Assembly (NCBI GenBank): GCA_043786595.1
Contig: JAYVVW010000167.1
Span: 1-58,818, forward strand
DNA: 58,818 bases
From: Sphingomonadales bacterium
Lineage (GTDB): Bacteria > Pseudomonadota > Alphaproteobacteria > Sphingomonadales > Sphingomonadaceae
Direction of reading: 5' to 3'
The notes below the pieces were generated by a model that had not been told where the DNA came from, did no database searches, and saw only the letters and a list, made by a program, of their open reading frames with translations. Position numbers and translations under genes: made by a program. Of the stretch, positions 3,435 to 28,184 are shown in pieces (the stretch's first letter is position 1; each line of letters starts with the position of its first letter).

Positions 3435-6400
3435 TTACTTGCGGCCAAGCCCAAGTGCGGAAAAGCTGTTCTGGTCAAATTTGAGGCGCAGCGTGACATA
3501 GGGGCCGCTGCGCGTGTAGCGGCTGTCTTCGAAATCACGGTCGGTAAAGCCAACAACATTGTAACCGATTGAGATGTAGCTGTTTTTGACCGGCGAGATG
3601 CTGATTGATGGGCCGCCCGAATAGGAGAATGTGCGTCCGCCGGGGCTCTGCCTGACCGTGCCCGACACGCCGAGGTCAACATGCTTGCCCAGATCAAATC
3701 GGATGTCTGTTCCGAAAACATTGCTGAGGCCCTTGAGATCATCGACACCAAAACGATCGAACACGTAGCGTGTGCCAATGAACGCCGAAATTTCGCTGCG
3801 GCCGAGATATTCGTCGCCAATCCGCGATGTTGGTGACCAATTGAGGCTGAGGCTGTTGACGATCCGTTTCGATGTCACATCACCGCTGATGGTGAGCGGT
3901 GCGCCGCCGATCGGGCCGGGCTGGCCGAACACCGCGCCGCGAACCTTGTCTTGGCGCAGATCGAGCTTTTCAAGGAAGGCGAAGCGCGAATTGTCGGGGC
4001 GGTTGACCCAGCTCAGTGCAATATTTGCGGTTTCGGTGCGCGGGCCGTTGACACTATCGGCATGGAACCAGCTCAGCGCGCCGCCAAACGCACGGCCTTC
4101 GCCGATTTGGCGCAGCGCGGCGGCCGTGACGCCGTAACGATTGCCAAGGCTACCATCACGGTATTCAGCGCGCCCGGTGACGCTCCAGTTTTCGCCGCGA
4201 TACGTTGCGCCGGTGGTCAAAGCGGTGAAGTCTTCGCTTAACACGCCGTCGCTGCCGATGAATCCGCCCGATGCAACGGGCTGTGCGACATTGAGGACGC
4301 GCGTGCGATCAATGCCGCGCAAGGTTTTGTTGCCTTCAAGCGTTGCGTCAATCGTTACCTTTTTACCGATCGGCAACGATTGCGAAAGGCCATAAGCTGC
4401 AAAACTGCGCGGGCCATATTCCTGCGTCGCTTGCTGGTTCGCGCTGGCGACGAGCCGCGCGCCTGCCCAAGGCTTGATATCAAATCCGATCCGCGCGGTG
4501 CGCGCGTCAATTTTTTCGCCGTCTGCGATTTCATAGGCGCCAACAATCGAAACATCGTCGGTTAGGGCAAAACGTGCGCCGACTTTGTGACGCGCGGGGA
4601 AATCAATGCTGTCATTCTTGCCGCCGATTGGAAATTCGGTCTGTGCGTCAAGCTCAAGCCGGTTGTCGAATAGCTTCTTGGTTGCGCCAAACTGCGCGAT
4701 TGTCGAGGTTGCGGTTGCTCCGGTTGAAAGACGGTCGTTGGCGAGTGTGACGCCGGCGCGCAGATCAAGCGCCTTGCCGCGATATTCGATCAGCCCGCGC
4801 GCGGCCTGGCGGCGCGTGACGGCATCAAGGTAATCTTCCTGATAGCCACTGCCGACCAGCGAGAGTTGGGGCGAAAGGCGGACGCGGCCGTCGACACCGA
4901 ATTTGCGCGTGCCATTTTCAGCGCCATTGGTCTGGCCAACGCCAAAGCCTGCGTCTTGCTGGCGGGCATAAGCAAGAACATCATATTTCGAACCGTGATG
5001 TTCCGCTTCCACCAGCCACGCCAGCGCGCGACCGTTCGTTGAAGGCACACGTCCGCCCGCTTTTGCACTGGCATCGCTGACCGCGATTTCGGCACGGACT
5101 TCGTTGTTTGCATTCGGGGTGAATCGCAGATCAAGCCCGCCCATATTTGTTTTCGAAAGATCGCTTTCATCATGGATCGCGGTTGCGCCAAGCGTCAGAG
5201 TCTTCGAAGCATTTTTGATCGTCGCGCGGCCACCGGCGTTGATCACGCGCTGTCCCGTGCCGTCAATTTCATAATCGACAACGATAAATTGCGGATCGAG
5301 CAGGCTTGAGCGCGACAATATCGGCTCACGGAAACGGAGCGTGCCACCGAGATAATCAATATCATAATCGATGTTGCGCAGCAGCGTGCGGCTCTGGATA
5401 ATCCGGTCAGACCGCAGGCGATCGCGCACTTCGATCACAACGCGTTCGCTGTTGGGCAGGATGTCGCGTGCGTTGAGCGCATAGGGGCCGGTCAGGCCAT
5501 TGCCCTGGATTTCCTGGCGGTTATGGCGGAACGGCGTATCGGCGGCGAACGCGGTCGCGGTGACGCGCTCGGTGCCATATTCAGCCTTCACGCCGTTAAA
5601 CGCGCGTTGATAGCGTGTGAGCACGGGTTCGTTGATGCCGGTTTCATAGTCACCGAACAGCGCGTAGAATTGCGGACGTTCGAGACGCAGGTAAAGCTTG
5701 CGCACGCTAGCGGCATCATAGCGGCGTTCGCTACGATCGGCATAGATTGTGTAATAAGCGCCAGGATCGATCGTGCCGCCAAAGCGCGTTTCATCAACCT
5801 GCTTGTCGCTGTCATACGATAAAGTCATCAGCCATTTGCCCTTGACGCGGCCCTTGGCATAAAGCGCAAGGCGGGCGTCGCTGAACCAATGATCGCCATT
5901 TTCGCCGAGCTTTTCGATGCGGCTGTCAAGCGTGTTAAAGCCTGCGGTGCCAGCGGCAAAACCAACGATAGTCCACGGGCGATTGCCCGGTGTCAGCCAT
6001 GTCTGGATCTGCTGTTTACGCGTTGTTTCGGCATCGCGGAATGGAAAGCTGATCTGGATGCCGCCCGATGCGGTGGTGGGCTCAAGCTCGATATACGCAA
6101 TGCCTTCGTCACCAACAACATGCCAGACGGCGCGCGCGCGCTCTAGCCCGGCGAGCTGGCGCGCGGCCTGGGCGTCGGCCTCGACGGCAGGATAATAGGG
6201 GGCAGGCACCTCAAAATCGCCGACCAAGCCGTGGTGTACAGGGCGGCCTTCACGGTCGGTCAGGCGCACCGCGATCACGGGGCGGGTTACGCCGTCGGCG
6301 ACGAGGATTGATTTTGATGGCACGAGTTCGGCGTGAAGCGCGCTGTTGGCATAATGGACGTTGCGCGTCAGTGTCTGGATCAATGTGCCGCTTGCATCGC

Positions 6401-8525
6401 GCACTTCGGCGGTAAAGCGCGTGTTCGTGCTTTCGAGTGACACACCGCGCCATATGCTGACTGCAACCGTGTCGAGGCCATTTTTGCGCGCGCCATCGAA
6501 TGTGAGCGGGTTGACGGGCTTGCCGTCGGCAAACAGCGTCACCGTCTGGCCAGGCAAATGCTTGATCGCGACGCGCACGGCTTTGGTGCGTGGATTATGC
6601 TCAGGCTCAGGGAACAGCCAGCCGATTTCGGGCGATTGTCCGCTCAACCAGTCACGTTCGGCGCCCGCGGCTTCGGGATCACTTGCGGGCGTGTCGCGGA
6701 GCGTGGCCGCCACAATCGGGCGATCTGCGTTGACGCCGGTGACGGTGCGGAAGTCAGCACGGATCAGCGCGCCGCCCTGGCCGTCGATAAAGCGCGAGAT
6801 GGCGCTGCCGCCGGTTCGTGCATTTTTGGCACAGTCCGAAGCTATTTGGTTCCCAGGCAGTGTCGAGGGATCAATCTGCACAACGTGAAGCCCCGGAATC
6901 ACGCCCTCAAAATGATAACGACCTTCGATATCGGTGACGGCATAACTGCCATCCTCCAGCATGACTCGGATTCCCGGCACGCCGTTGGCGACGTTGGGAT
7001 CAACGGTGCATCCACCATCTGTAATCCGCCCGATGATTGTCATCCGGTCGCTGATGCCGTCGCGTGAAATGCGCAGCGGCGCATCGACAACGGCGCTGAT
7101 CGTTCCGCGATCATCGCGCGCCTGCGCCCGGTTCATTGCGGTTCCCGGTTTTGCGTCGGGCCTGATCTCGACAATATAGGTGACAAGCGTGCTTGCTCCC
7201 CCACGCAGCGGGGCCAGTGATACGCTAAACTGGCGACCATCGCTCTGGACTAACGCCGGAATGTTCTGTCCGTTTTGACGAACCGTATTGGAGCGTAATC
7301 GCATCTCGGGCGGAAGTGTGTCGGTCAGCGTTATCCGCCCCGTCGTTCGACCGGCATCGCCGTTTTGCACGTTGATGCGGTACTGGATCGCATCACCCGG
7401 CACGGCGATAACCGAACTGGATGATTTTGTAACCGATATCGATCCGCCCGGCCGATCGGCGGGAACGTCAATCCGCACCGGGGTGGGATCGCTCAGCACG
7501 AACGGGCGGCCATAGGAGCCGTCGACAATAACATAAGGCAGGCCGTCAGGGCGCCTGATCGCGGCAAGATCGATTGGCGTTCCGACGGCGGGGACGGTGT
7601 AGGGCGCGGGCACCTCGACTTGCAGCCGGTACGTGCCGGGCCGTGCAAAAGGAAAGCGGTAATCGCCGGGTGGGAAGCTATAGAGCGCGCCGCTGCTGTC
7701 GCTCACCGTTGATCCGGTGATGATCGTTGACGGGAAGCGCGATACGCCGTCATCGCCGAACACATCGGCCGGGCGCCCCGTCGCAACATCAATCAGTGTT
7801 ACGCGTGCGCCAGCGATCGGCGCGCCGTCGCCCGTATCGAAAACGATACCGAACGGATCAATCAAAATCTCAATCGTCGCGGCGGCAAACGTCAGGCCGT
7901 CGACCGCGCGAACGCCATTAAGCGTAAAATTGTCACCAGAACGAACCGAAAGCACGCAGTCACCGCGTACTGGCACGGGCGGATTGGCCGATGTGCGAAC
8001 GACACCGATAAAAATGCCGCTGTTCACTTCACTTTCCCATAGCGTCAGCCGCTCGGAATCGCCGCTCGGCGTTTGCAACATGACGATAATCCGGTCAATC
8101 GCGTTCGGATCAATATTATCGGCGGGCGATGACATTGAAACGACAATGGGCGCGCCCGCACGGATCCTGTTGCTGCGCACCAGGCTTGCCGGGCTGAGCG
8201 AAACACCTGCAAATGCACCATCGGGGGTGATCGGGATGCTGGTGCCGCTGCTGGTTTGGCATTCTGTCGAGCGCACAGCGATTTTCAGCGCGCCCGGCGC
8301 CGATGTGAATTCATATGTAAGGAGGGTTGGCGTCGGGTTTCGCGGACGATCCACCTGGATGTCGACGCGGTTTGACTGACGGCTGACGCGGGTTGTTCCC
8401 GCATCCCACTGGAATGTCGCGGTATTTGAGATGATCTGCGCACGCGCGCTGATCGGCACCGCGCAGAGCAGCACGGTGGCAAGGGCGACCATCAGAGCCC
8501 AAATATGGTTTACAGAATTAGGCAT
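3435..8525 (-). CDS. Large exported protein: N-terminal NTAT segment, Ig-like/DUF11 domains and a predicted C-terminal outer-membrane beta-barrel
   Basis: Signal-peptide-like N-terminus; complete DUF11-like domain (SVTK...PGDAIQYRI...TDTLP...MNRAQA); long alternating-hydrophobic C-terminal region ending YVTLRLKF...; start uncertain (8525 or 8492). Confidence 0.75.
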   Translation of the reverse strand: MPNSVNHIWALMVALATVLLCAVPISARAQIISNTATFQWDAGTTRVSRQSNRVDIQVDRPRNPTPTLLTYEFTSAPGALKIAVRSTECQTSSGTSIPITPDGAFAGVSLSPASLVRSNRIRAGAPIVVSMSSPADNIDPNAIDRIIVMLQTPSGDSERLTLWESEVNSGIFIGVVRTSANPPVPVRGDCVLSVRSGDNFTLNGVRAVDGLTFAAATIEILIDPFGIVFDTGDGAPIAGARVTLIDVATGRPADVFGDDGVSRFPSTIITGSTVSDSSGALYSFPPGDYRFPFARPGTYRLQVEVPAPYTVPAVGTPIDLAAIRRPDGLPYVIVDGSYGRPFVLSDPTPVRIDVPADRPGGSISVTKSSSSVIAVPGDAIQYRINVQNGDAGRTTGRITLTDTLPPEMRLRSNTVRQNGQNIPALVQSDGRQFSVSLAPLRGGASTLVTYIVEIRPDAKPGTAMNRAQARDDRGTISAVVDAPLRISRDGISDRMTIIGRITDGGCTVDPNVANGVPGIRVMLEDGSYAVTDIEGRYHFEGVIPGLHVVQIDPSTLPGNQIASDCAKNARTGGSAISRFIDGQGGALIRADFRTVTGVNADRPIVAATLRDTPASDPEAAGAERDWLSGQSPEIGWLFPEPEHNPRTKAVRVAIKHLPGQTVTLFADGKPVNPLTFDGARKNGLDTVAVSIWRGVSLESTNTRFTAEVRDASGTLIQTLTRNVHYANSALHAELVPSKSILVADGVTRPVIAVRLTDREGRPVHHGLVGDFEVPAPYYPAVEADAQAARQLAGLERARAVWHVVGDEGIAYIELEPTTASGGIQISFPFRDAETTRKQQIQTWLTPGNRPWTIVGFAAGTAGFNTLDSRIEKLGENGDHWFSDARLALYAKGRVKGKWLMTLSYDSDKQVDETRFGGTIDPGAYYTIYADRSERRYDAASVRKLYLRLERPQFYALFGDYETGINEPVLTRYQRAFNGVKAEYGTERVTATAFAADTPFRHNRQEIQGNGLTGPYALNARDILPNSERVVIEVRDRLRSDRIIQSRTLLRNIDYDIDYLGGTLRFREPILSRSSLLDPQFIVVDYEIDGTGQRVINAGGRATIKNASKTLTLGATAIHDESDLSKTNMGGLDLRFTPNANNEVRAEIAVSDASAKAGGRVPSTNGRALAWLVEAEHHGSKYDVLAYARQQDAGFGVGQTNGAENGTRKFGVDGRVRLSPQLSLVGSGYQEDYLDAVTRRQAARGLIEYRGKALDLRAGVTLANDRLSTGATATSTIAQFGATKKLFDNRLELDAQTEFPIGGKNDSIDFPARHKVGARFALTDDVSIVGAYEIADGEKIDARTARIGFDIKPWAGARLVASANQQATQEYGPRSFAAYGLSQSLPIGKKVTIDATLEGNKTLRGIDRTRVLNVAQPVASGGFIGSDGVLSEDFTALTTGATYRGENWSVTGRAEYRDGSLGNRYGVTAAALRQIGEGRAFGGALSWFHADSVNGPRTETANIALSWVNRPDNSRFAFLEKLDLRQDKVRGAVFGQPGPIGGAPLTISGDVTSKRIVNSLSLNWSPTSRIGDEYLGRSEISAFIGTRYVFDRFGVDDLKGLSNVFGTDIRFDLGKHVDLGVSGTVRQSPGGRTFSYSGGPSISISPVKNSYISIGYNVVGFTDRDFEDSRYTRSGPYVTLRLKFDQNSFSALGLGRK

Positions 8526-8577
8526 AAAAAAAGGCGAACTTGGCCATCTGACAGCAGGATTGCCGCCAGATGGCCAA
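8526..8577 (-). terminator. Probable rho-independent terminator or attenuator between the 360-aa gene and the large gene
   Basis: Minus-strand hairpin TTGGCCATCTGGCGGCA-ATCC-TGCTGTCAGATGGCCAA followed closely by T7. Confidence 0.65.
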
Positions 8578-8586
8578 TTCATCGCT

Positions 8587-9669
8587 CTAGTTGATCCGGA
8601 CTTGGAAATAGATTGTGCGCGTCGAGTTTGCTGCAATCGTTCCCAATGTACCACTTACGGTTGCCGTACCCGAATTATAGGTGCCGCCGGTCGCCCCGTC
8701 GAGATTGCATGTGCCGGTGCCGGGCGTTCCTGTGTAGGTGCCGCTCTGGAATACCCCATAGGTGGTTTCATAGGTGGTCTGCGCGGGCAGGGGATCGGTG
8801 ATAGCCACGCTTGATGCCGAGCTTGATGCACTCGCTGCGTTGCTGACGATGATGCAATATTCGACAAGCGCACCCGGAATGAATTTCGGGTTGGTCGTGC
8901 CGTTGATTGGATCGGAGATGACGCGGCTTTGCTTGGCTACAGTCAGCACTGGAGCGGAAACGGTATAATCGTCACCCGCGCTGTGTCTGCCATCGGACAC
9001 GATATCAGTGACGCCAGCAGCATCGGCAAATACCGTATCAACGCCTGCAGTATTTGCACCGCCCGTTGCGGTAACCAGAGCGCCCTGTGTATTGGCCGTG
9101 CCGGCTTCAAACGCTTGGGCGGTAAGGCGAACGCCTGCGACATCGCCGTTTACGCGCCCGATCGGAATATTCGCGACGACGAACACCGTCCTGGTCGTGT
9201 CCGCGGCAATTTCATCAAGATAGGTCACGGCGGTGTCGGTGCCGGCATCATAAACGCCGTTGCCATTGGTATCGAGATAGATTGTTGGCGCGGTGACATC
9301 GAAATTGTCGGTGCCGCCGTGTGCCGCTGTTCCACCCGCTTGCTGCGCGACAGTCAGCCCGAAATCGAGCGGCGCGTTCGACGTATTCTGCACGGTAAAC
9401 GTCGTGACTTGTGCGGTTGCACCCGGTGCGACCGAGGTCGTAGCGTTGCCAACTTCGGCAACCAGGAGGCTGATCCTGCGATCGACGACAATCCGGTTTG
9501 TGTTTGAATTGACTGCTGTCTGGCTGACGCCGCCGACCTGATAATTGACGGTCGCAGTATTGTCGATGAAGCTACCAGCAGTCGTGCCGACCGCAAATGC
9601 AGGCGTTGCTGCGAGTGCGGCGATGGCAATACCGCTGGTTGCGGCGAAATATTTGATCTTGTTTGTCAT
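8587..9669 (-). CDS. Secreted DUF11-like beta-rich protein, candidate major fibre subunit
   Basis: Sec signal (..TPAFA), GTTAGSFIDNTAT, DTNGNGVYD loop, LTVAK..PGALVEY..TDPLP..TIYFQVRIN. Confidence 0.8.
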   Translation of the reverse strand: MTNKIKYFAATSGIAIAALAATPAFAVGTTAGSFIDNTATVNYQVGGVSQTAVNSNTNRIVVDRRISLLVAEVGNATTSVAPGATAQVTTFTVQNTSNAPLDFGLTVAQQAGGTAAHGGTDNFDVTAPTIYLDTNGNGVYDAGTDTAVTYLDEIAADTTRTVFVVANIPIGRVNGDVAGVRLTAQAFEAGTANTQGALVTATGGANTAGVDTVFADAAGVTDIVSDGRHSAGDDYTVSAPVLTVAKQSRVISDPINGTTNPKFIPGALVEYCIIVSNAASASSSASSVAITDPLPAQTTYETTYGVFQSGTYTGTPGTGTCNLDGATGGTYNSGTATVSGTLGTIAANSTRTIYFQVRIN

Positions 9670-9741
9670 ATTAATCTTCCCGTCTGTTTACAGGTGTCGT
9701 TCGGTCTCCGCCGACACGAAAGCGGATAGTTTTGGGTTTTT

Positions 9742-10206
9742 TCAGCGGACAATGCCGCGGAAACTGAGTTTTCCCTGCGCACCGGCAGGGATGGATTGTT
9801 TGAGCGCCCAGCGGACATGCGTGACATCTTCGGGCCGCGCACTTCGCCATCGACCGTCTTCAAGCACTTTAAGCGATGCCAGCATCCCCCAATCCTTGCC
9901 GCCGTCGATTGAGACTTCGGCATTGCTGTCAGCCGCGCCCTGATAGGCGACGGCGCTTGGCATTGGATTAGTCACGACAAAGCTGTTCGCCGGGGTTTGC
10001 CCTTCATTGTGGTAGCTCAAGATAAACACCAACTTGTCTCCCGGCGCGACGATCGTTGGAGCCTGGAGTATCGTTTTGCTACGGCCGTTGCTGTCGGGCA
10101 GGATACGCTCGACAAACACCGCACTCGACAGCGCGACTGCGCTCGCTGCGTGCGCCGCGACCGGCGCAAAAAGTGCGCAAAAGGTGAGAATAAGCCGGTA
10201 CATCAT
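9742..10206 (-). CDS. Small secreted DUF11-like protein (acceptor-type domain only)
   Basis: Sec signal (..AAHA), VAPGDKLVFILSYHNEG..VTNPMP..LSFRGIVR. Confidence 0.75.
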   Translation of the reverse strand: MMYRLILTFCALFAPVAAHAASAVALSSAVFVERILPDSNGRSKTILQAPTIVAPGDKLVFILSYHNEGQTPANSFVVTNPMPSAVAYQGAADSNAEVSIDGGKDWGMLASLKVLEDGRWRSARPEDVTHVRWALKQSIPAGAQGKLSFRGIVR

Positions 10207-10212
10207 TGCCCC

Positions 10213-11223
10213 CTAATTGATCCTGACCTTGAAAGTGACGGTGCGCGTTTGCCCCCCCGCAACACTTCCCAGCGCGACCGAAACCGCATTGCTTGTGAAA
10301 TTGCCCGCGTCGCTATCTGTCGCGTCGCTCAATCCAGCGGCTTGCAGCGTAATCGTTCCGGGCTGGTAAGTGGTGTTTGCAGGGACGGCATCGCCGATCG
10401 CCGAATTGGTAAGCGTGCCGCTGCCGCTGATCGTTGCGACCAGCGTGTAAGTGATGATTGCGCCGGGCACACTGCGCGTTCCGCCGAACGGATCGGCGAC
10501 GACTGCGGTTTTGTTAAAGCTGATCGTTGCGTTTTGAACAAGGTAACGTCCGCGATCAACGCCGTCGGCACCCGTTGCTCCGACCACTGCCGCTCCGCCG
10601 CCCTGGCCCTGGCCTGCAAAGCTCGTACCGGGCGCGCCTGAACCCGTGGTTGCAGTCGCGGTCAGTTCGATCGTTCCGCGATCAAGGTCAATCGTGCCCG
10701 CAGGAACCGTTGAAAGCACGAACACACGCACTGAGGCGTCGGGCGCAAGGACGGGATCGTTTGAGCCTGCGATATAAACAGTGTCGACACCGGCATCATA
10801 AACGCCGTTGCCATTGCTATCGATGACGATTGACGTTGTCGTGGGATCGAACTGATCGCCGCCGATCGTTGCATTGGGCGTCAGGCGAAATGCTTCGCTG
10901 CCGTTACCAATATTGGTGATCGTGAAGCTCAAAATCTGGTTTGTCGCACCTGGCACAACAACGACATCGCCGGGGTCTGCCGTGGCGACGGTCACATCGA
11001 GCAGCTCATCGACAACGATGTCGACGGTGTTCGATGGCACTGCGACGGGGTTACCGCCAGCATCGGTGTAGGTTGCGGTTGCTGTATTACTGATCGTCGA
11101 TCCGGCCGTGGTTCCCACCGCCAGAGCAGGCTCTGAAAAACCGATCGTTGCCGTTGCGACGATGAGCGGCACGACGTGCGCAAGCCGCACATTCAATATC
11201 GCCCACTGCGTTCCCGAATTCAT
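10213..11223 (-). CDS. Secreted DUF11-like protein, paralog of 8587-9669
   Basis: Signal (..EPALA), GTTAGSTISNTAT, DSNGNGVYD, SFNK..PGAIITYT..GDAVP..TVTFKVRIN. Confidence 0.8.
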   Translation of the reverse strand: MNSGTQWAILNVRLAHVVPLIVATATIGFSEPALAVGTTAGSTISNTATATYTDAGGNPVAVPSNTVDIVVDELLDVTVATADPGDVVVVPGATNQILSFTITNIGNGSEAFRLTPNATIGGDQFDPTTTSIVIDSNGNGVYDAGVDTVYIAGSNDPVLAPDASVRVFVLSTVPAGTIDLDRGTIELTATATTGSGAPGTSFAGQGQGGGAAVVGATGADGVDRGRYLVQNATISFNKTAVVADPFGGTRSVPGAIITYTLVATISGSGTLTNSAIGDAVPANTTYQPGTITLQAAGLSDATDSDAGNFTSNAVSVALGSVAGGQTRTVTFKVRIN

Positions 11224-11272
11224 TATCTGCGTTCCCCGTTCTTTGGTCCGGGGTTCTTTGCACCGGGAATCG

Positions 11273-11288
11273 GTAAGAAATGATTAAC
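11273..11288. promoter_or_regulatory. Possible CtrA-binding site upstream of the DUF11 operon
   Basis: GTAA-N7-TTAAC, one mismatch to TTAA-N7-TTAAC. Confidence 0.4.
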
Positions 11289-11478
11289 TGGCGTCAACAA
11301 AAGCGACGTCATTTCTGAATGAAAATTAGCGATTTAGCCCGTTTTGGTGCAAACATTGATCCCAGTCCGCCGTCATGGCGTCAGCGTAGGTTGTCGCACT
11401 CGGTCGGCGCTGACGCTGCGCCACCTGGTCATGCATGTGTAAGGGATTTGAAAGATGGGTTTGGGTATCTGCGATGTC

Positions 11479-11507
11479 TTGACACTGATTTGCCGCTCGC
11501 CTAACAG
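11479..11507 (+). promoter_or_regulatory. Sigma70-type promoter for tRNA-Asp
   Basis: TTGACA-N17-TAACAG just upstream of the tRNA. Confidence 0.55.
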
Positions 11508-11524
11508 CCCCTCACCACATCCAC

Positions 11525-11601
11525 GCGGGTGTAGCTCAGTTGGTTAGAGCGTCGGCCTGTCACGCCGAAGGTCGCGGGTTCGAGTCCCGTCACTCGCGCC
11601 A
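11525..11601 (+). tRNA. tRNA-Asp (GTC)
   Basis: Acceptor stem GCGGGTG/CACTCGC, D-arm AGCTCAGTTGGTTAGAGC, anticodon loop CTGTCAC, GTTCGAG T-loop, encoded CCA. Confidence 0.97.
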
Positions 11602-11735
11602 TTCTCTGTGGTTCTACCTTGAGAATGAAATATCGGAAGTGCAGGGCGATTGTGCTGCACAGTGGAATTATCCATTCAATTCAAACGATTATGGCAGATT
11701 GTTGTTGTTTGACTGGATAAAGCTTCAACCGTTCG

Positions 11736-12413
11736 TTAGAACAGCGCGTTGAACTTTTGCACCGCTACGGCCGCACCCTCGGGATCATTCCACACCGCAG
11801 CGCTCACCGCGATGAAGTCTGCGCCTGCCGCTACAATCGGCGCGGCGTTGGCAGGCGTAATCCCGCCAATTGCAACGCAGGGCAAGTCGAACAGGGTCGT
11901 CCACCAGCCGAGAATTGATGCTTCGGCACGGTGCGTCGCAGCCTTGGTTTTGCTCGGAAAAAACGCACCGAATGCGACATAATCAGCGCCCGCTTCACCC
12001 GCCTCCATCGCGAGATGGCGGTTGTCATGACACGTAACGCCAATTTGCGCCGTCGGGCCGAGTAGCGCACGCGCATCTTTCGCATTGCCGTCGCTTTGGC
12101 CCAAATGGACGCCGTCCGCCCCCAGCGTCTTGGCGAGCGCCATGCTGTCGTTGATGATGAACGCGACGTCGTGTTCGGCACAGATCGTCTGAAGCGGCGT
12201 TGCAATCTTCATTGCATCATCGTCGTCTAAGTCTTTGACACGAAACTGGAAAGCCGCAACACCGCCGTCTGCGATCGCTCGGGTCAGTGTGTCGCCAAAA
12301 CCGTCCACAATCGCGGGTGGTGAGATCAGATAGAGTTGGCACGGCGGGCGCTTTTCACGCGCAAAACGGTCAGCAAAGCCGGGGTCGAGGATGATATCGT
12401 CAGATTGGGTCAT
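11736..12413 (-). CDS. thiE: Thiamine phosphate synthase
   Basis: QFRVK, IIND, DGVHLGQSD, GADYVAFG and VAIGGIT motifs. Confidence 0.9.
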   Translation of the reverse strand: MTQSDDIILDPGFADRFAREKRPPCQLYLISPPAIVDGFGDTLTRAIADGGVAAFQFRVKDLDDDDAMKIATPLQTICAEHDVAFIINDSMALAKTLGADGVHLGQSDGNAKDARALLGPTAQIGVTCHDNRHLAMEAGEAGADYVAFGAFFPSKTKAATHRAEASILGWWTTLFDLPCVAIGGITPANAAPIVAAGADFIAVSAAVWNDPEGAAVAVQKFNALF

Positions 12414-12459: not shown

Positions 12460-13353
12460 TCAAACCTTTACCGTCGACGCATGGAAAATTTCGTCGATCG
12501 CGGAAGACAGCGATCCGTTGAAGCCGTCGTCATCCATCTGGTGACGCAGGTCTTCAAGCAATGCGCGCGAGAAACTCGCGATCATGCCCCTGTTCTGCGC
12601 AAGCTGTGCGCACGCTTCAGGGCGGGCAAAACCGCCAGAAAGCGCGACGACGCGCAGCACGCGTGGATGATTGACCAGCGGATCATACAGCCCCGCTTGT
12701 GCAGGGATGCTAAGCTTGAGCATCACCTTGTCATCGCCCGGCATCACGTCAAGTGCCTTCGTCATTTCTTCAAGCAGAATCTGATCGGCCGCAGCGCGCT
12801 CGACGCTCTTGATGTTGATTTCGGGCTCAAGCATCGGCACGAGGTCGCCTGCAAGCACCTGCTGACCGATTTCGATCTGCTGCTTGACGATTGCGGCGAT
12901 GCCTTCGCGATTGGCCAGATTGATGACCGACCGTTCCTTGGTGCCAAATACGCCCAGGCTTTTGGCGCGCGCAAGCAAATCATCAAGTTCGGGCATCGGT
13001 TTCATCATCTGAACGCCGTTGGCTTCGTCTTCCAACCCTTTGTCAATCTTGATAAAAGGGACAACACCGCGTGCCCAAAGTACGGCGGGTACGGGCTGGT
13101 CATTCGCGTTGCCGTTCATGGTTTTTTCAAACAGGATCGCGCCGATTACTTTTTCACCGTTGAAACAGGGCGATGTGATGATCCGCGTTCGCATCTGATG
13201 GATCATCGCATACATTTCTTCGTCGCCTGAATAGGCGGTTTCTTCGACGCCGTAGCCCTTGAGCGCTTTAGGTGTCGAACCACCGCTTTGATCGAGCGCC
13301 GCGATAAAGCCGTGGCCGCTGGCGATCTGTTCCATCATTTTTGACTGTGACAT
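12460..13353 (-). CDS. Fructose-bisphosphate aldolase, class I (bacterial type)
   Basis: GFIAALDQSGGSTPKAL, GTKERSVI and ALSGG motifs; glycolytic operon context. Confidence 0.92.
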   Translation of the reverse strand: MSQSKMMEQIASGHGFIAALDQSGGSTPKALKGYGVEETAYSGDEEMYAMIHQMRTRIITSPCFNGEKVIGAILFEKTMNGNANDQPVPAVLWARGVVPFIKIDKGLEDEANGVQMMKPMPELDDLLARAKSLGVFGTKERSVINLANREGIAAIVKQQIEIGQQVLAGDLVPMLEPEINIKSVERAAADQILLEEMTKALDVMPGDDKVMLKLSIPAQAGLYDPLVNHPRVLRVVALSGGFARPEACAQLAQNRGMIASFSRALLEDLRHQMDDDGFNGSLSSAIDEIFHASTVKV

Positions 13354-13402
13354 CGCGAATTCCTTATCTTGAGTTCAGGCCGAAGCCGATATGTGAAATC
13401 GA

Positions 13403-14599
13403 TCAGTTCGTTTCCAATGCCGCGACGCCGGGTAGTTCGCGACCTTCCATCCATTCGAGGAAAGCGCCACCAGCCGTTGAAATAAAAGTAAAATCTTTCG
13501 CCACGCCTGCTTGATTGAGCGCGGCTACGGTATCACCACCACCAGCGACCGAGATAAGCGATCCGGCGCTAGTCAGCGCAGCAGCCATCCTGGCAAGCGC
13601 GACGGTCGCCGCGTCAAACGGCGGCGTTTCAAACGCACCCATTGGTCCGTTCCACACAAGCGTGCGACAGTTTTTGAGGACATCGCCGAGCGCTTCGACC
13701 GCAGCAGGGCCAACGTCGAGGATCATTTCATCAGCGCGCACTTCATGGACGTTGACGGTGCGCGTTGGCGGATTGGCGCGAAACTGCGTGGCAACGACGA
13801 CGTCATAAGGTAGATGGACGGTGCAATTGGCGGCGTCTGCGGCGTCGAGGATTGCTTCGGCGGTTGCGGCCAGATCATGCTCGCACAAAGATTTGCCAAC
13901 GTTAATGCCGCGCGCTGCCAGGAACGTATTCGCCATGCCACCGCCGATGATGAGATGGTCAACGCGTGCAACCAGGTGTCGCAGCACGTCAAGCTTCGAT
14001 GATACCTTTGCACCGCCGACGACCGCTGCAACGGGCTTTTCCGGGGCGCCCAGTGCCTTTTCAAGCGCCTTAAGCTCGGCTTCCATCGCGCGGCCCGCAA
14101 ATGCCGGAAGCACATGGGCAAGCCCCTCGGTCGATGCGTGTGCGCGGTGCGCCGCAGAAAAAGCATCGTTGACGTAGAGGTCACCGAGCATCGCCATCTG
14201 CGCGACCAGCGCGGGATCATTGCTTTCTTCGCCTGGGTGAAAGCGGGTATTTTCAAGGACACAAATCGTTCCGCGCGGAAATTTCCGCACCGCGTCCGCT
14301 GCCGACTTTCCAGCACAGCAAACAAGAAATTCAACCGCGCGGCCAAGCACCGCAGCGAGCGCGGGCACCACCTGCGCAAGCGACATGTCAGCATTGACTT
14401 GACCCTTGGGGCGGCCAAAATGCGCGAGCACCAACACTGTCGCGCCGCGATCGGACAGTTCAGATAAAGTTTGAACTGTGGCGCGTAACCTTGTGTTATC
14501 GCTTACATGTCCGTCCACTATCGGCACGTTGAGGTCGTCGCGGACAAGCACGCGCTTGCCCGCAATATCACCCATGTCATCAAGCGTCCGGAATGCCAT
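13403..14599 (-). CDS. pgk: Phosphoglycerate kinase
   Basis: [32 protein letters not shown] and STAGGAFLE motifs; ATG overlaps gap stop. Confidence 0.97.
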
Positions 14600-15603
14600 C
14601 AGATCAGCTTGCCCATTGCGCCTGCGGTATCGACCATGCGGTTGGAGAAGCCCCATTCATTGTCATACCAGCTGACCACGCGGACGAGCTTGCCTTCGAT
14701 GACAGCAGTTTCAAGGCTGTCGACGGTCGAGCTTGCAGGGCAATGGTTATAGTCGATCGAAACAAGCGGTTCTTCGCTATAATCGAGGATACCCTTAAGC
14801 GTGCCTTGCGATGCGGCCTTGAGCGCCGCGTTAACCTCTTCGCGGGTCGTATCACGGCTCGGCGTAAAGGTCAGGTCGACGAGGCTGACGTTGGGCGTTG
14901 GCACGCGGATCGCAGACCCGTCGAGTTTGCCCTTGAGTTCGGGCAGCACTTCGGCAACGGCACGCGCAGCACCAGTTGTGGTGGGTATCATCGACATGCC
15001 AGCGGCGCGCGCGCGGCGCATGTCAGAGTGGATTTGATCGAGAATTTTCTGGTCATTGGTATAAGCGTGAATCGTGGTCATCAGGCCGCGTTCAATCCCA
15101 ATCGCATCGTTGAGCACCTTGGCAACTGGCGCAAGGCAATTGGTGGTGCATGACGCGTTTGAAACGATCTTGTGATCGGCGGTCAGCTTGGCTTCGTTGA
15201 CGCCGAACACGACGGTCAGATCAACGCCCTTGGCAGGCGCTGAAATCAGGACGCGCTTGGCACCGGCTGTTATGTGCTTGCCCGCCGATTCAGCGTCGGT
15301 GAAAAAGCCTGTGCATTCAAGCGCAATGTCGATGCCATTCGCGCTGTGTGGTAGGTTGGCCGGGTCACGTTCGGCAGTGACATGGATGCGCTTGCCGTTG
15401 ACGATGATGTCATTGCCGTCGGCTTCAACGGTGCCGGGGAAGGGGCCGTGGACGCTGTCACGCTTGAAAAGCAGCGCGTTTGATTTGGCATCGGCCAAAT
15501 CGTTGATCGCGACCAGTTCGAGCCCGCAGTCAGGACGTTCGAGGATCGCGCGGGCGACGAGACGGCCGATGCGGCCAAAGCCGTTGATTGCTACTTTGAT
15601 CAT
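14599..15603 (-). CDS. gap: Glyceraldehyde-3-phosphate dehydrogenase, type I
   Basis: [18 protein letters not shown] and WYDNEWG motifs. Confidence 0.98.
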
Positions 15604-15620
15604 ATCGTTAAAGACTCCTT

Positions 15621-17588
15621 CTAAAGCGCCAGTTTTGCAATGATTTGTGGTAAGATTTGATCGACACTCAAGCCAAAATGCGGGTAAAGCGCCTCAATCG
15701 GGGCGGACGCCCCAAAACTGTTGATGCCGATGTTGACACCGTCACGTCCGGTGTAGCGCTCCCATCCCATCGTGACACCCGCCTCGATCGAAACGATCAG
15801 CGCGTCACGCGGCATGATATCTGCCTGATACGCCGCGTCCTGCGCATCGAAGCGTGACCAGCACGGCATTGAGACAACATCGGCACCGGTGCCAGCAGCT
15901 TCAAGTGCATCCGCGACGCCAAGCGCAATTGCAACTTCAGAACCCGTCGCGAGCAACACGACGCGTCGTACTGCTGAAGCCGCGCGTAGCCGGTATGCGC
16001 CCTTCTCGCTCAAGTTAACCGAGGTATCTGTACGAAGTTGCGGCAAATTCTGGCGTGACAGCGCGAGCAGCGACGGCCCGTTCGCGTTCTCGACTGAAAG
16101 TTGCCAGCATTCGGCGGTCTCAACCGCGTCGGCAGGGCGGTACACATCAAGGTTGGGCATCATCCGCAAGCTCATGACATGCTCGACAGGTTGATGGGTC
16201 GGACCATCTTCACCAAGGCCAATGCTGTCATGCGACATGACATAGATGACACGCGCCTGCTGGAGCGCTGAAAGGCGGATTGCGGCGCGGCAATAGTCGC
16301 TGAACACGAGGAATGTACCGCCGTAGGGGATGATTCCACCGTGGAGCGCCATCCCGTTCATCGCCGCAGACATGCCGAATTCTCGGATGCCATAATAAAC
16401 ATATCTTCCGGAATAGTCGTGTTTAGTCAGCGGCTTGGTTGAAGTTGTTTTGGTATTGTTAGAACCCGTCAAATCGGCTGATCCGCCGATCATTTCGGGA
16501 ATAGCTGACGTCATCGCTTCAAGCGCCATTTCGCTCGATTTGCGCGTCGCGACATTGGCGGGTGTTGACGTCAAGCCATCTAAATAATCACGAAACGCGG
16601 TGTTTTGGGGAAGCGTGCCGTTCATACGCCGAGTGAACTCCGCGCCGTCAGCATGCGCCGCGAGGCGCGCGGCCCACTCGGCGTGGGCGGCTTTACCTGC
16701 GTCGCCGTAGCTGAGCCATGTCGCCGCGATGTCGGCTGGAATTTCAAACGGTGGCGATGTCCAGCCGAGTGCGACGCGCGCGGCAGCGACTTCATCACTA
16801 CCAAGCGCGGCACCGTGCGTGGCGGATGTACCCTGCTTGTTGGGTGCGCCTTTGCCGATGATCGTGCGACACGCGACCAGCGAGGGACGCGGATCGGCGC
16901 GTGCGGCGCTCAGTGCGCGGGCAATGTCCGCCGAGTCGTGGCCGTCGCATTGCTCAACATGCCACCCGGTTGCGGCAAACCGCGCGGGAATGTTTTCGCT
17001 CGTTGAAAGATCGGTCGCGCCGTCGATGGTTATGCGGTTGTCATCCCAAAGAACATTGAGACGCCCGAGCCCAAGATGCCCGGCAAGGCCGATCGCTTCG
17101 TGATTTATCCCTTCCATCAGGCATCCGTCGCCCGCAATTACCCAGGTTTTGTGATCAACCAGCGTATCACCAAAGGTTGCGTTCAAGTGCCGTTCGGCGA
17201 TCGCCATGCCAACCGCCATCGCCAGACCCTGACCAAGCGGCCCGGTGGTGCATTCGATGCCTTCAAGTTCAAAATTTTCGGGATGCCCCGCGCATGGGCT
17301 GTGCAACTGGCGGAAATTGCGAATGTCGTCGATCGTCGGCCGTGCATAGCCCGTCAGATTAAGCAGCGCATAAGCGAGCATTGATCCGTGTCCGGCGGAA
17401 AGGACAAATCGATCACGGTCTGGCCATTTGGGCGCAGACGGATCAAATGAGAGGAATTTGGAGAATAGCACGGTCGCGACGTCGGCCATACCCATCGGCA
17501 TGCCTGGATGGCCCGACTTTGCCGCCTCGACGGCATCCATCGAAAGCGCCCGGATAGCGTTGGCAAGATCTGGAAACGCAACGCTCAT
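15621..17588 (-). CDS. tkt: Transketolase
   Basis: [13 protein letters not shown] and GEDGPTHQP motifs. Confidence 0.97.
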
Positions 17589-21454: not shown

Positions 21455-21832
21455 ATGGCTGCATCTGCTGCCGGATATTTGCCGATATTGCTCTTTCTGG
21501 GCGTCGCGCTTGCGCTTTCGAGCCTGTTTGTGTTTCTGCCGATGGCTGTTTCGCGCCTCACCGGAACGCATCAGCCAACGCCTGAAAAGCTCACCGAATA
21601 TGAATGCGGTTTTCCTGCGTTTGAGGGCAGTCGTGCACAGTTTGATGTTCGCTTTTACCTTGTCGCGATCCTGTTCATTATTTTCGATCTTGAGGCGGCG
21701 TTTCTGTTTCCCTGGGCGGTTTCGCTTCGGGAAAGCGGCTGGGCGGGATGGACGGCGATGATGGTCTTTCTCGCCGAACTCGTTCTCGGCTACATTTACG
21801 TTTGGAAAAAGGGAGCGCTCGAATGGGAGTAA
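21455..21832 (+). CDS. nuoA: NADH-quinone oxidoreductase subunit A
   Basis: [24 protein letters not shown]. Confidence 0.96.
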
Positions 21833-22371
21833 GGCCCGCCATCGCCGCCAATGAGGTGGTTGCCGATGTGCCCGCCGACGCCAGTTTTTTCAACGGCCTC
21901 AATGATGAATTGTCAAACAAGGGCGTCGTCATGTCGTCAACCGAGGAGCTGCTCCAATGGGCGCGCACCGGTTCGCTCTGGCCATTGACCTTTGGTCTTG
22001 CCTGCTGCGGCGTTGAGATGATCCACGGTTATATGCCGCGTTATGATTTTGAGCGTTTCGGGATTGCCCCGCGCGCCAGCCCGCGTCAGTCCGATGTGAT
22101 GATCGTCGCTGGTACGCTGTGCAACAAGATGGCCCCCGCGCTGCGCAAGCTTTATGATCAGATGAGCAATCCCAAATATGTGATCTCGATGGGAAGCTGC
22201 GCGAACGGTGGCGGCTATTATCATTATAGCTATAGCGTCGTGCGCGGGTGCGACCGGATTGTGCCCGTTGACATCTATGTGCCCGGATGCCCGCCAACCG
22301 CCGAAGCATTGCTTTACGGGATCATGCAGTTGCAACGCAAAATCCGCCGCGTCGGAACAGTAGAGCGGTGA
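21823..22371 (+). CDS. nuoB: NADH-quinone oxidoreductase subunit B
   Basis: GLACC, SPRQSD, MGSCA, PGCPP. Confidence 0.97.
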
Positions 22372-23078
22372 GCCACTCAGCCCCGCGCTATACCACGCCG
22401 ACCGGCGCCATCGCCGCGTTCAAAAAGGCGCTTGGCAAGGATTTGTTGTCAATCGACGAAGCGAACGGCGAAGTTGCGCTCCATGTAAAGCGCGATGCGC
22501 TGCTCGATTGCATGATGCAATTGCGTGATACGTGCGATTATCAGCAGTTGATGGAGATTGCGGGCGTCGATTGGCCAGACCGCGATCCGCGATTTGAAAT
22601 CGTCTACTGCCTGCAAAGCCTGACCAAAAACCACCGCATCCGCGTTCATGTTGTCGCCAATGAAGATCAGCCGGTGCCTTCGGTCACATTGATCTGGCCT
22701 GTTGCGGGCTGGCTCGAACGTGAAGTGTTTGATATGTACGGCGTGCTGTTTGAAGGCAACACCGATCTGCGCCGTATTCTTACCGATTACGGCTTCACCG
22801 GCCATCCACAGCGTAAGGATTTCCCACTGACCGGTTATGTCGAGTTGCGCTATTCTGAAGAGCATAAGCGCGTGATGTATGAGCCCGTCCACCTAGCGCA
22901 GGATTTTCGCTCGTTCGATTTCATGAGTCCCTGGGAAGGTGCTGACTATATTCTGCCCGGCGATGAAAAAGTCATCCAGTCTGGCATGCCGCCGCGCGGA
23001 ACGCCGCCAAAGGTTGATACGCCCAAGACGACCGAAAATCGCAAGCAGACCGGCGCGGGCAAGGAGTCTGCGAAATGA
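22368..23078 (+). CDS. nuoC: NADH-quinone oxidoreductase subunit C
   Basis: [27 protein letters not shown]. Confidence 0.96.
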
Positions 23079-24286
23079 GCCTGATCAAGGAAGTCACGCC
23101 AACCACCGGCGATGAGCAGATCGAGAATTACACAATCAATTTCGGCCCGCAGCATCCATCTGCGCACGGCGTGCTTCGCCTTGTCATGGAGCTTGACGGT
23201 GAGATTGTTGAGCGGCTTGATCCGCATATCGGTCTGCTCCACCGCGGCACTGAAAAGCTGATCGAGCATAAGACCTATCTCCAGGCGCTACCCTATTTTG
23301 ACCGGCTCGATTACGCCTCTCCGCTCGCGATGGAATATACTTATGTGCTTGCGATTGAGAAGTTGCTCAATCTTGAAGTGCCGCTGCGCGCGCAATATCT
23401 CCGGGTGTTCTTTGCCGAACTGACGCGCGTTTCAAACCATGTCCTCAATCTTGCCCACCACACGCTAGACGTTGGCGCGATGACGCCCGGCCTCTGGATG
23501 TATGAAACGCGTGAGGATTGCCTCAACTTCTTTGAACGGGCGAGCGGTGCGCGGATGCATTGTGCCTTGTTTCGCCCCGGCGGGCTGCATCAGGATGTTC
23601 CTCTCAAGCTGCTCGCCGATATTGGTGACTGGCTCGACAACCGTTTGCCGCGCCTGTTTGAAGATGGGCTGAAACTTGTGGTCGACAACCGCATATTCAA
23701 GCAGCGCAATGTGGGTATCGCGGTCGTCAGCAAGGATGATGCGATCAAATGGGGCTTTTCAGGCCCGATGATCCGCGCGGCTGGCGTCCCGTGGGATCTG
23801 CGCAAGTCGCAGCCTTATGATGTCTATGACCGGATGGAATTTGACATTCCCGTCGGCACCAAGGGCGATTGCTATGACCGGTTCATGGTTCGCTGTGAGG
23901 AAGTCCGCCAGTCGATCCGCATCATGAAACAGTGCCTGCGCGATATGCCCGAGGGGCCAATCGCTTCGGATGACCGCAAGATCGTCCCCCCCAAGCGCGC
24001 CGAGATGAAGCAAAGCATGGAAGCGCTGATCCACCACTTCAAACTCTACACCGAAGGGTTTAAGGTGCCCGCAGGCAGCGTCTACGTCGCGACTGAAAGC
24101 CCCAAGGGGGAGTTTGGGGTGTATCTTGTTTCGGATGGGTCGAACAAGCCTTACCGCTGCAAGATTAGGCCGACGGCGTTTTCGCACTTGCAGGCGATGG
24201 ATTTCATGACGCGCGGGCATATGCTGGCGGATACGACGGCGATTCTCGGCGCGCTCGACATTGTGTTTGGGGAGTGTGACCGGTGA
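23075..24286 (+). CDS. nuoD: NADH-quinone oxidoreductase subunit D
   Basis: [29 protein letters not shown]. Confidence 0.98.
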
Positions 24287-24600
24287 GGCTGCCATTAATT
24301 GATCAATATGCAGCTTATCTGAGACGAGGCTTTATATCAGACCGGCGATATTTTTCCTTCGGTAGACGTGAACAAGCAAAATTTTTACTGGCTGGGGGTT
24401 TGCTAGTTTTACTTGCAAATGAGTATGTAGAGTACTCTTGTTATAGATATTTGTTGATAGTAGTTGCAACGCTGATTGGTTTTGGCGGTACATTGTTTGT
24501 GTTGATTACACAGTTATGCATAGCTGATAGATTTGGAGATAAACGATACAATATATTCATCCGTAAAAGGCTGTCGGATGAATATCGAGATGACAAATAA
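24283..24600 (+). CDS. Accessory AT-rich two-TM hypothetical protein (cargo)
   Basis: GTGA overlap with nuoD stop; visibly AT-rich; two hydrophobic stretches. Confidence 0.65.
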
Positions 24601-24649
24601 TGGCTGACACCTCCACTATGCCCAACGAAGCCGCACCCCACGCCTTTTT

Positions 24650-24731
24650 CGTCATTGCGAGCGAAGCGCGGCAACCCAGTTCTACGTTCGGAAGACTGGA
24701 TTGCCGCGTCGCTTCGCTCCTCGCAATGACG
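24650..24731. repeat. REP-like palindromic element, copy 1
   Basis: CGTCATTGCGAG...GCGGCAACCCAG / CTGGATTGCCGC...CTCGCAATGACG nested inverted repeats. Confidence 0.85.
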
Positions 24732-24791
24732 GGAGGCGAATGTGGCTGACACCCCCACCATCCGCAACCGCGTCGAAGCCCGCGCCCTATT

Positions 24792-24872
24792 CGTCATTGC
24801 GAGCGAAGCGCGGCAATCCAGTTCCACGTTCGGGATTCTGGATTGCCGTGTCGCTTTGCTCCTCGCAATGAG
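24792..24872. repeat. REP-like palindromic element, copy 2
   Basis: CGTCATTGCGAG...CGGCAATCCAG / CTGGATTGCCG...CTCGCAATGAG. Confidence 0.85.
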
Positions 24873-24905
24873 GGGGGCATGCTATCCTCTGAAAGGCGCG
24901 ATCAG

Positions 24906-25133
24906 ATGACTGAGAATGTTGAAAGTTTGATCCTTGAGCGCCTGTGCCGGATGGACGAACGGCTGGGCAATATCGAGGATGATATGATGGGCATAAAGAC
25001 GCGCGTGTCAGCGATCGATGAACATCTTGCGGGCATGTTGATCAGTCTTGGAGGCCTCAACACGCGAATGGGCAAATTCGACGAACGGTTTGCCCGCGTT
25101 GAACGGCGGCTTGATCTGACAGAGGTTCGATAG
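24906..25133 (+). CDS. Small coiled-coil hypothetical protein (cargo)
   Basis: GAAAGG RBS; [13 protein letters not shown]...[12 protein letters not shown] with heptad pattern. Confidence 0.7.
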
Positions 25134-25261
25134 TGCAGAGGTTGCCAACCGCGTTCTGGCATTTGCGAGCAATGGATTTCATGACGCGCGGGCAAATGTT
25201 GGCGGATACGTCGGCGATTTCGGGCGCGCGCGATAGTGTGTTTGGGGAGTGTGACCAGTGA
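25134..25261 (+). pseudogene. Decayed duplicate of the nuoD 3' end
   Basis: [38 protein letters not shown] versus Nuo[39 protein letters not shown]. Confidence 0.92.
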
Positions 25262-25785
25262 TCGGACGGCGGGAAATGTTGGCGGCTACAGCTGCAGGTA
25301 TCGGCGCGATCGCATCGGCAAGCGGAGCCGACGCTTGCACGCTGATCGCAACACGTAGAGCAAAACCATTCCGATCGTCGACTTGCGAGCGTCAAATCCG
25401 TCAGATCGTTGATTTTGCGAACCTCGCGCATGCAAAAACCGATGAAGAGGTAACCGCCTGGGCTGAAAAGACGGGTATCGATGCGCAGTATGGCGGTGAC
25501 GATTTTGATAATAGCCGGGTTTTGCAAACCATGCGGATTTCTGATGGCAAAGTTGACCTCAAGCCCATCAGAATTCTTGAGATAAATCTGCTTCGACAGC
25601 TTGGAAACAAAGCAAGTTATCAATTTACGTTGCGCCGGAACCAGTTTTCGGCAGCTGATGACGAAGGTTGCAACGGCCTGTTCACGCACGGCGAATTCTA
25701 CTCAGATGTAGACACAGCTTTTCTTGCTTGGTTTGAGGATAACGAGTTTCAAGGCTTTCGCGAATTTCCCGAGTGGTATGTTTGA
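25258..25785 (+). CDS. Exported hypothetical protein with Tat-like signal (cargo)
   Basis: GRREML twin-arginine motif, h-region and ADA cleavage site; GTGA overlap with the nuoD copy; TGATG overlap with nuoE. Confidence 0.7.
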
Positions 25786-26423: not shown

Positions 26424-26572
26424 GCAGGGCAAGCCTCATTGCATTGGGTTTGGCTGCGTTCGTTGGAGCAATTGCATTGTCGTATTTTGGGCAAAGAGTT
26501 TTAGCAGTGATTCTAATTCCCATTTGCGCTGGCCTAATTGCCAAGGGCGCACTTAAAGGAATTGTGAAGTGA
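26420..26572 (+). CDS. 50-aa two-TM small protein (cargo), not in the ORF track
   Basis: GTGA overlap with nuoE stop; MSRASLIALGLAAFVGAIALSYFGQRVLAVILIPICAGLIAKGALKGIVK. Confidence 0.6.
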   Translation: MSRASLIALGLAAFVGAIALSYFGQRVLAVILIPICAGLIAKGALKGIVK

Positions 26573-26584
26573 ATTTTCTCCACT

Positions 26585-26677: not shown

Positions 26678-26692
26678 GCAAGGTGTGAAGGT

Positions 26693-27991: not shown

Positions 27992-27995
27992 GCGT

Positions 27996-28148: not shown

Positions 28149-28184
28149 TTGTCGCTTAGTCTCAGCAGCGAAGGTAAGTTACGC

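Follow-up and report, generated by a model that had tools for sequence, protein, structure and literature searches.

The window analysed here, i.e., positions 1 to 58,818 of contig JAYVVW010000167.1 (GCA_043786595.1), carries on its minus strand, at 3435..11223, an operon of four genes that, on balance, probably builds a donor-hairpin pilus with a tip, a shaft and a base, in which the two halves of a split CLIPPER (DUF11) domain meet between subunits and are probably locked by isopeptide bonds. That CLIPPER domains are completed in trans, between subunits, is very likely. A first-pass annotation had proposed that the N-terminal segment of each subunit completes the C-terminal domain of the next one and is covalently fixed there; completion by a neighbour and a split Lys–Asp–Asn triad are well supported by homology, by conservation and by how donors and acceptors are distributed, while the polymer and the bond are what we infer from them.

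The four genes are co-directional, flanked by genes for an EEP-family hydrolase and tRNA-Asp, and transcribed in the order A, C, B and BIG; all four products have AxA-type signal peptides (read by eye). Subunit A (336 residues, secreted; 10213..11223, minus strand, as for all features of the operon) consists of a signal peptide, a donor hairpin (V36–D72; 11008..11118, with the putatively reactive N46 at 11088-11086), a middle immunoglobulin-like (Ig-like) domain and a C-terminal acceptor domain (10216..10527; K238 and D278). Protein C (154 residues, secreted; 9742..10206), left unexplained by the first-pass annotation, is a DUF11-type single domain of 134 residues without a donor. Subunit B (360 residues, secreted; 8587..9669) has a donor hairpin (V27–D63; 9481..9591, with its putatively reactive N37 at 9561-9559), a middle domain (8956..9480) that forms a full Ig-like sandwich and has an acidic DxNxNG loop, which may bind calcium, and an acceptor domain (8590..8955; K246 and D292) in which C272 and C321 likely form a disulfide. 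BIG (about 1690 residues; 3435..8525) combines a donor hairpin at its mature N-terminus (Q73–D102, with N77; 8349..8438), an Ig-like stalk, a complete CLIPPER/DUF11 domain (7062..7442) and a predicted beta-barrel of about 36-38 strands (3438..5999) with one small beta-domain inserted. The listed open reading frame (ORF) of BIG runs from 8654 to 3435, but its GTG start at 8654 overlaps the B gene; the real start is likely the ATG at 8525 or 8492, and the ESM Atlas entry of BIG begins at residue 55, i.e., at 8492. A and B share about 35% identity and are likely the minor or adaptor pilin and the major shaft pilin, respectively. The closest named relatives belong to Sphingomonadales (79% identity).

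The name CLIPPER replaced DUF11 once a crystal structure had shown a K715–N806 bond with D748 next to it (PDB 9IFR; Costa et al. 2025, PMC12617251; for this and the papers cited below, statements refer to the accessible part of the text). It is a CnaA-like fold with the Lys on the first strand, an Asp catalyst and the Asn on the penultimate strand, and has a role in adhesin stalks (PMC12617251). BIG holds one complete copy, in which K410 (SVTK), D445 (TDTLP), the VEIR strand up to R498 and N508 (MNRAQA) are located as the first-pass annotation had claimed, and residues 406-514 match PF01345 with 28.1 bits, above the gathering cut-off of 24.6. Its further claim that the C-terminal domains of A and B keep the Lys and the Asp and end without an Asn strand is borne out as well: both chains stop at VRIN, with no C-terminal LPxTG sorting signal. 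The C-terminal domains stay under the same cut-off in A (17.4 bits) and C (22.2 bits), B being unmatched at E<=0.1, and score 24.5 (A), 21.1 (B) and 20.0 (C) against TIGR01451 (cut-off 24). The Pfam match of A reaches the C-terminus at model position 84 of 114, and in hhalign the acceptors of A, B and C cover positions 3-96 of BIG's complete domain (prob 96.0, 97.7 and 83.8), the alignments of A and B ending at VEI/VEIR, ten residues ahead of BIG's Asn. Thus, the Lys, the Asp and the Asn lie inside one contiguous domain only in BIG, and A and B carry the Asn on the N-terminal hairpin. The matching N-terminal segment reported from the first pass does exist, with N46 in A and N37 in B, but it is a two-strand hairpin and not a single strand; the additional Ig-like domain said to separate it from the C-terminal domain is the middle domain.

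Where the missing strands went can be read from relatives that are not split. P0125 (696 residues) consists of two pilin units that are naturally joined head to tail; its acceptor 1 ends at residue 367 and the donor follows directly, with its Asn 11 residues on. The gap between acceptor end and Asn is 10 in the intact domain of BIG and mostly 10 in P0196, a 2026-residue adhesin with 12 Pfam DUF11 repeats, where donor-profile matches lie directly behind 11 of the 12 acceptor matches, each of them weak (E 0.0025-0.35). The mature chains of A and B carry their Asn at position 11. The common spacing of 10-11 residues in intact domains and mature pilins implies that the cut fell in the loop leading into the last two strands, with zero residues lost, and the sequences therefore identify the donor hairpins as what appear to be the missing last two CLIPPER strands, including the Asn, moved to the mature N-termini of the pilins. 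The N-terminal hairpin of BIG aligns with the donor of A (prob 97.9, profile alignment), and the acceptor profile finds no unfinished acceptor in BIG. A further arrangement occurs in P0223 (donor, middle domain, intact DUF11, payload, C-terminal acceptor), which may represent an adhesin that forms part of the shaft.

The family is large: one search retained 1603 proteins among the 7999 candidates scored, and the profile collects 1135 clusters (50% identity) at E<=1e-30. In 141 representatives (the best 150 profile matches minus nine outside 330-420 residues; 35-59% identity to B), the Asn is kept in 136, the Lys in 133, an Asp or Glu in 139 and the full triad in 127, and the chain stops exactly at the VRIN column in 131. 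Gene order, a check named beforehand, was compared in the best 80 of 572 confirmed loci, which are kin, so that these counts are not independent: A-C-B-BIG is whole in 69, and contig ends truncate the remaining 11. Among the 69, ORFs were called too long in four, and BIG is split over two ORFs in one. Six loci have a tandem duplication of B (L013, L018, L023, L032, L033, L046), and L040 is a locus in which BIG is broken in two. Phylum-wide, 46 of 401 genomes have some match, many of them to intact DUF11 repeats only. Among 11 distant regions selected for strong or clustered matches, seven hold C, acceptor-ended subunits and a barrel, and two are contig-end pieces of one genome.

The distribution of the two halves in the 80 loci bears most directly on completion in trans. 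A donor is present in 159 of 160 pilins and in all 43 scored complete BIG ORFs, in none of 78 C proteins and in none of 35 further operon-adjacent ORFs of relatives that end in an unfinished acceptor. The payloads N-terminal to these 35 acceptors comprise CBM96, P-proprotein, SpaA_3, DUF7933 and intact DUF11 domains, and such acceptor-only, adhesin-like proteins look, by their sequences, like exchangeable fibre tips. The source genome itself has three acceptor-ended adhesin-like genes elsewhere, donor-less and with Lys and Asp kept, one on C90 (candidate tip gene at G000:C90 ~10236-12100 = L081:5234-7102, minus strand) and two on C224 (candidate tip gene at G000:C224 ~13775-15900 = L082:5776-7905, minus strand). 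The second C224 gene has no intact 5' end and looks decayed. Acceptor-only and donor-only parts cannot complete themselves and must therefore be completed in trans; no other observation speaks as strongly against closed monomers.

This parts list (adhesin-like proteins with an acceptor only, A and B with both halves, the barrel protein BIG with a donor only, and C with nothing but an acceptor that has no Lys) suggests the following assembly. All subunits would reach the periplasm by Sec, where C would cover free donor hairpins but could not bond with them, leaving the irreversible reaction to the barrel. An adhesin would form the tip, its acceptor taking the donor of A or B at BIG's barrel; A would serve as adaptor and B, in excess, as shaft, the donor of each incoming subunit completing the unfinished C-terminal domain of the preceding, more outward one. 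Once buried beside the Asp catalyst of the acceptor, Lys and Asn would join with loss of ammonia. BIG's barrel would pass folded subunits, and its own donor would finally fill the last acceptor, ending the chain and tying the fibre, via the intact CLIPPER domain, to the membrane. In chaperone-usher pili, PapH is a donor-only terminator. The scheme is weakest on how long the fibre is, how A and B follow one another, and what C and the barrel do.

A long polymer of B is nonetheless likely. Between B and BIG lies a stem-loop (8526..8577; 17 bp plus a U-run) of -37.5 kcal/mol (z -6.4), with none of 200 shuffles equally stable. Behind B, 59 of 73 loci have a hairpin with z<=-2, with no sequence common to them, against 6 of 76 after A, 2 of 78 after C and 5 of 58 after BIG, a contrast weakened by the fact that the controls for A and C include some coding DNA. 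The stem-loop was missed by a simple terminator scan, and promoter-like matches were at chance level. Its conservation fits B being made in excess as shaft, and it may act as an attenuator or mRNA stabiliser giving that excess. Stem-loops are known after the major pilin gene in chaperone-usher operons. The alternative is a short fixed chain of tip, A, B and BIG, one or few of each, i.e., a fibrillar adhesin in pieces with exchangeable tips. A and B are different enough that each could fit one partner only, P0125 shows that units can be joined in one chain, and the duplicated B of some loci resembles stalk repeats; yet the conserved stem-loop suggests an excess of B over BIG, and B has both halves, with no sequence barrier to B–B joining. 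We therefore regard the short chain as unlikely, even though it survives best among the alternatives.

A covalent lock in the present operon is, in our judgement, likely as well. The three residues, whose poor conservation would by the first-pass annotation have counted against its proposal, are strongly conserved: Asn, Lys and Asp are kept in 74, 75 and 75 of 75 orthologues of A and in all 82 of B, and N77, K410, D445 and N508 in 62 of 62 orthologues of BIG. Were the pilus held by donor hairpins without covalent bonds, the triad inherited from CLIPPER would react rarely or never between chains. Consistent with this, the triad is incomplete in 14 of the 141 representatives of B, Lys and Asp are both lost in three related tip ORFs of CBM96 type (L064:14794-15834, L071:~12830-13861 and L078:~14120-15157), which are possibly held non-covalently, the bond is missing in some DUF11 domains (PMC12617251), and oligomers of the N35A mutant of BsaA, a fibre protein of Clostridium perfringens, persist until boiling (PMC11580942, preprint). 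Against it stands the near-invariance of the triad in A and B next to its loss in C, where Lys occurs in 0 of 78 orthologues, a contrast that points to selection on the triad where joints bear load. A purely non-covalent pilus thus has a small probability, slightly below that of the short chain.

In C, Ser28 stands for the Lys and Asn80 for the Asp; across the 78 orthologues, the Lys place holds Ser, Gly or Asn, and the Asp place holds Asn in 72. C is thus, to judge by these substitutions, an acceptor presumably unable to form the isopeptide bond; it may be either a non-covalent sheath for donors (a chaperone) or a cap, and we put the sheath at slightly less than an even chance. No PapD-type chaperone model matches C. 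A second C-type gene stands alone in the source genome (G000:C69:455-931 = L083:455-931, minus strand); its product is 48% identical to C and also has neither Lys nor Asp.

The last 855 residues of BIG are modelled as an outer-membrane barrel (predicted local distance difference test, pLDDT, 81), whose 36-38 strands were counted from the secondary-structure list of the model. Foldseek ranks other large barrels highest (SlpA, MtrB, FimD, SprA, LptD), all with TMq <= 0.27, and the barrel profile found nothing among PDB sequences. Usher models are absent among the Pfam and NCBIfam matches of the four genes at E<=0.1, and FimD itself aligns with the barrel (Foldseek TMq 0.16-0.25; VIA Z 11.6, root-mean-square deviation (rmsd) 8.1, 342 aligned residues) alongside many unrelated barrels. 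The absence of a recognisable usher, as noted in the first pass, holds for sequence families only, since the predicted barrel and the donor of BIG make it a candidate export-and-anchor protein. BIG may be both base and export channel, and we lean slightly towards the channel. The type IX secretion translocon SprA was considered and rejected (TIGR04189 12 bits vs. a cut-off of 200, E 0.02, over BIG 1087-1172 only; Foldseek TMq 0.21-0.25). The inserted beta-domain (window ~5260-5525; BIG ~1043-1131), which adjoins this weak SprA model match, resembles phage neck and tailspike domains (Z 7.8-8.4, rmsd 1.6-2.1) and is possibly a plug or docking domain.

The joints could also be as proposed with the helpers acting differently, C capping the tip or plugging the donor of BIG, and BIG being an anchor outside assembly, with another secretion route. 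C is donor-less like the tips, the second C gene stands alone, C was not found beside pilin and barrel in two distant regions, and no usher family is matched. Real tips, however, mostly keep their Lys and C never does, which fits a transient partner, and a barrel of 36-38 strands would far exceed the needs of an anchor. We consider such altered roles quite improbable.

Structure prediction bears on whether B is open. The AlphaFold2 monomer of mature B (149 sequences; pLDDT 97; predicted template modelling score, pTM, 0.86; mature-chain numbering) shows a hairpin with interrupted strands at residues 8-35, a middle domain at 37-213 and a C-terminal domain at 214-334. The middle domain is a complete sandwich alone, so that the hairpin is not part of it, and it aligns with CLIPPER 9IFR over 114 of 123 residues (Z 7.5, rmsd 3.6). 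The interrupted strand pattern, the alignment of chain 3-334 along two linear multi-domain rods (7usm and 3qe5) and linkers of 2-4 residues at both domain junctions suggest that the B monomer is open and extended. The fold search with B returned no solved pilin of the same kind and generic Ig rods only (TMq <= 0.35; best Z 8.9), neither the sequences of A, B and C nor the A2 and A3 profiles had a significant match among PDB sequences, and the ESM Atlas gave only unnamed or DUF11 clusters. Reading the middle domain as an in-chain chaperone was dropped, as the WxL chaperone domain 9i1y (Z 8.9, rmsd 3.2, 117 aligned residues) tied with unrelated proteins. Mean-field covariation used 344 B-type sequences. 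The top pairs lie within domains (T298–V357, E270–Q356, C272–C321, N42–A52); with an effective number of sequences (213) lower than the 324 columns, donor-acceptor pairs make up 3 of the top 100 (I60–L294, A39–P240, V45–A285), and top couplings link the ends of the donor to the base of B's own middle domain (T30–A156, V61–G209). A closed monomer or closed swapped dimer, in which the hairpin folds back onto its own C-terminal domain to give a circularly permuted CLIPPER with the middle domain inserted, finds some support in the tolerance of CnaA folds for inserted domains (PMC12617251) and in the confidence of the model over residues 1-36 (pLDDT 93-98, pTM 0.86), but is the least probable alternative and a very improbable one, given the short linkers, donor strands interrupted as in a hairpin without a partner sheet, couplings that would place the donor opposite the acceptor end, and tips and a BIG that possess no own half to close with.

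Several further observations weigh against the donor-hairpin pilus as we describe it. The donor profile aligns insignificantly with BIG's own Asn hairpin (E 0.1-0.2, hhalign), and the identity of the donor therefore rests on the unsplit relatives P0125 and P0196. N37 is not singled out by conservation, N95, N98, N277 and D63 being equally conserved. The 14 representatives with incomplete triads miss one residue each (Lys to Arg in six), one of the 14 has no acceptor, and Asn losses and Lys losses fall in different representatives, so that the covalent lock is dispensable in some members of the family. The open B monomer is read indirectly, via secondary structure and alignment ranges. The barrel has no good match among solved structures, and its role as a channel is deduced from size and context alone. 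Finally, the two distant regions with pilin and barrel where the C gene was not found are L116 and L117.

Compared with known systems, the operon is chaperone-usher-like in logic and BsaA-like in chemistry, and a member of neither. Chaperone-usher pili (Fim, Pap) share the acceptor-only tip, the donor-plus-acceptor shaft, a periplasmic helper, an outer-membrane barrel and the same polarity (PMC13721041, PMC11821415), but they are non-covalent, with a one-strand donor, a strand-donating PapD-type chaperone and a 24-strand usher, whereas the present system has a two-strand donor, a likely covalent joint, an acceptor-type helper and a predicted 36-38-strand barrel fused to a donor. In BsaA, an N-terminal donor Asn enters a neighbour that provides Lys and an acid, and an autocatalytic Lys–Asn bond between the molecules is proposed, an "exchange and lock" supported by mutants (PMC11580942, preprint); Asn on the donor and Lys and acid on the acceptor are common to both, but BsaA has the TasA fold, a single donor strand, a Glu catalyst, SipW processing and a Gram-positive host, with no outer-membrane barrel. 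Neither the TasA family nor the SipW peptidase gives a Pfam or NCBIfam match in the four genes. In CLIPPER itself, repeats follow one another in a single long chain and the bond is intramolecular, whereas here the halves lie on different chains, cut before the last two strands; the main text of PMC12617251, in its accessible part, mentions no donor, split or strand exchange. The archaeal thread Saci_0406 combines donor-strand complementation with a proposed isopeptide bond between subunits for which no enzyme is known, but there Asn57 bonds the N-terminal amine of subunit n+2, in another fold (PMC9715654). Pam pili of candidate phyla radiation (CPR) bacteria (PMC13278184, preprint) and Elr/WxL pili (10.64898/2026.10.17.759780) follow the same donor-strand logic of tip, shaft and terminator, and Pam pilins are likewise two-domain proteins whose C-terminal acceptor is truncated (PMC13278184); they differ in having membrane-anchored chaperones and no outer-membrane barrel, and are not DUF11, and the accessible text on Pam mentions no isopeptide bond. 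Three candidates were set aside as different systems, i.e., the CryoSeek TLP-1 single-domain n+4 fibril (PMC11494351), the archaeal non-covalent fibre Tafi (PMC11821415) and the Litorilinea DUF11 hook, a single chain of 6596 residues (10.1101/2025.08.19.671072); a paper on the type XI secretion system (T11SS) mentions DUF11 once, in passing. The four proteins have AxA cleavage sites and no Cys lipobox, and the donor, where present, is N-terminal (by eye). In this they are unlike type V pili, which have a lipoprotein precursor and a C-terminal donor strand.

As for novelty, the chemistry thus has a precedent in BsaA (PMC11580942), while the operon itself was not found described in our full-text literature search, most subscription journals and supplements being outside its coverage. 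The operon is real, conserved and coherent, a donor-strand pilus variant with a likely covalent lock, uncharacterised in the literature searched.

Regarding its surroundings, tRNA-Asp lies at 11525-11601 (plus strand), opposite in strand to A and some 300 bp upstream of it, and base composition gives no sign of an island; an origin as mobile island was dropped, as the GC content (57-62%) matches the flanks and the neighbours are housekeeping genes. Elsewhere in the window, the nuo (Complex I) operon (21748-40407, plus strand) is interspersed with ORFs without Pfam matches (25258-25785, 28149-28889, 28778-29527), some of which may be shadow frames, and ORFs of 765 residues (43866-46163, minus strand) and 386 residues (46618-47778, plus strand), without Pfam match at E<=1e-5, adjoin a histidine kinase gene.

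A bolder reading, which we hold less likely than not, is a widespread class of diderm pili, natural SpyTag/SpyCatcher polymers made of split CLIPPER domains and covalent all the way from an exchangeable tip adhesin to the outer membrane. The chaperone would be inverted, in that it would sheathe donors instead of filling acceptors, and one protein would serve as secretion pore (36-38 strands), terminator and anchor. A 2026 review lists the chaperone-usher, type IV, sortase and curli assembly pathways (PMC13721041); if our reading is true, diderms would make covalent pili with neither sortase nor classical usher, by one more assembly pathway, and a very large outer-membrane barrel would be added for study. 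Split CLIPPER halves would also offer natural self-ligating tag/catcher pairs. A large unannotated family, that of the 1135 clusters, would gain a function, and orphan adhesin-like genes with a truncated DUF11 end would be explained as exchangeable tips.

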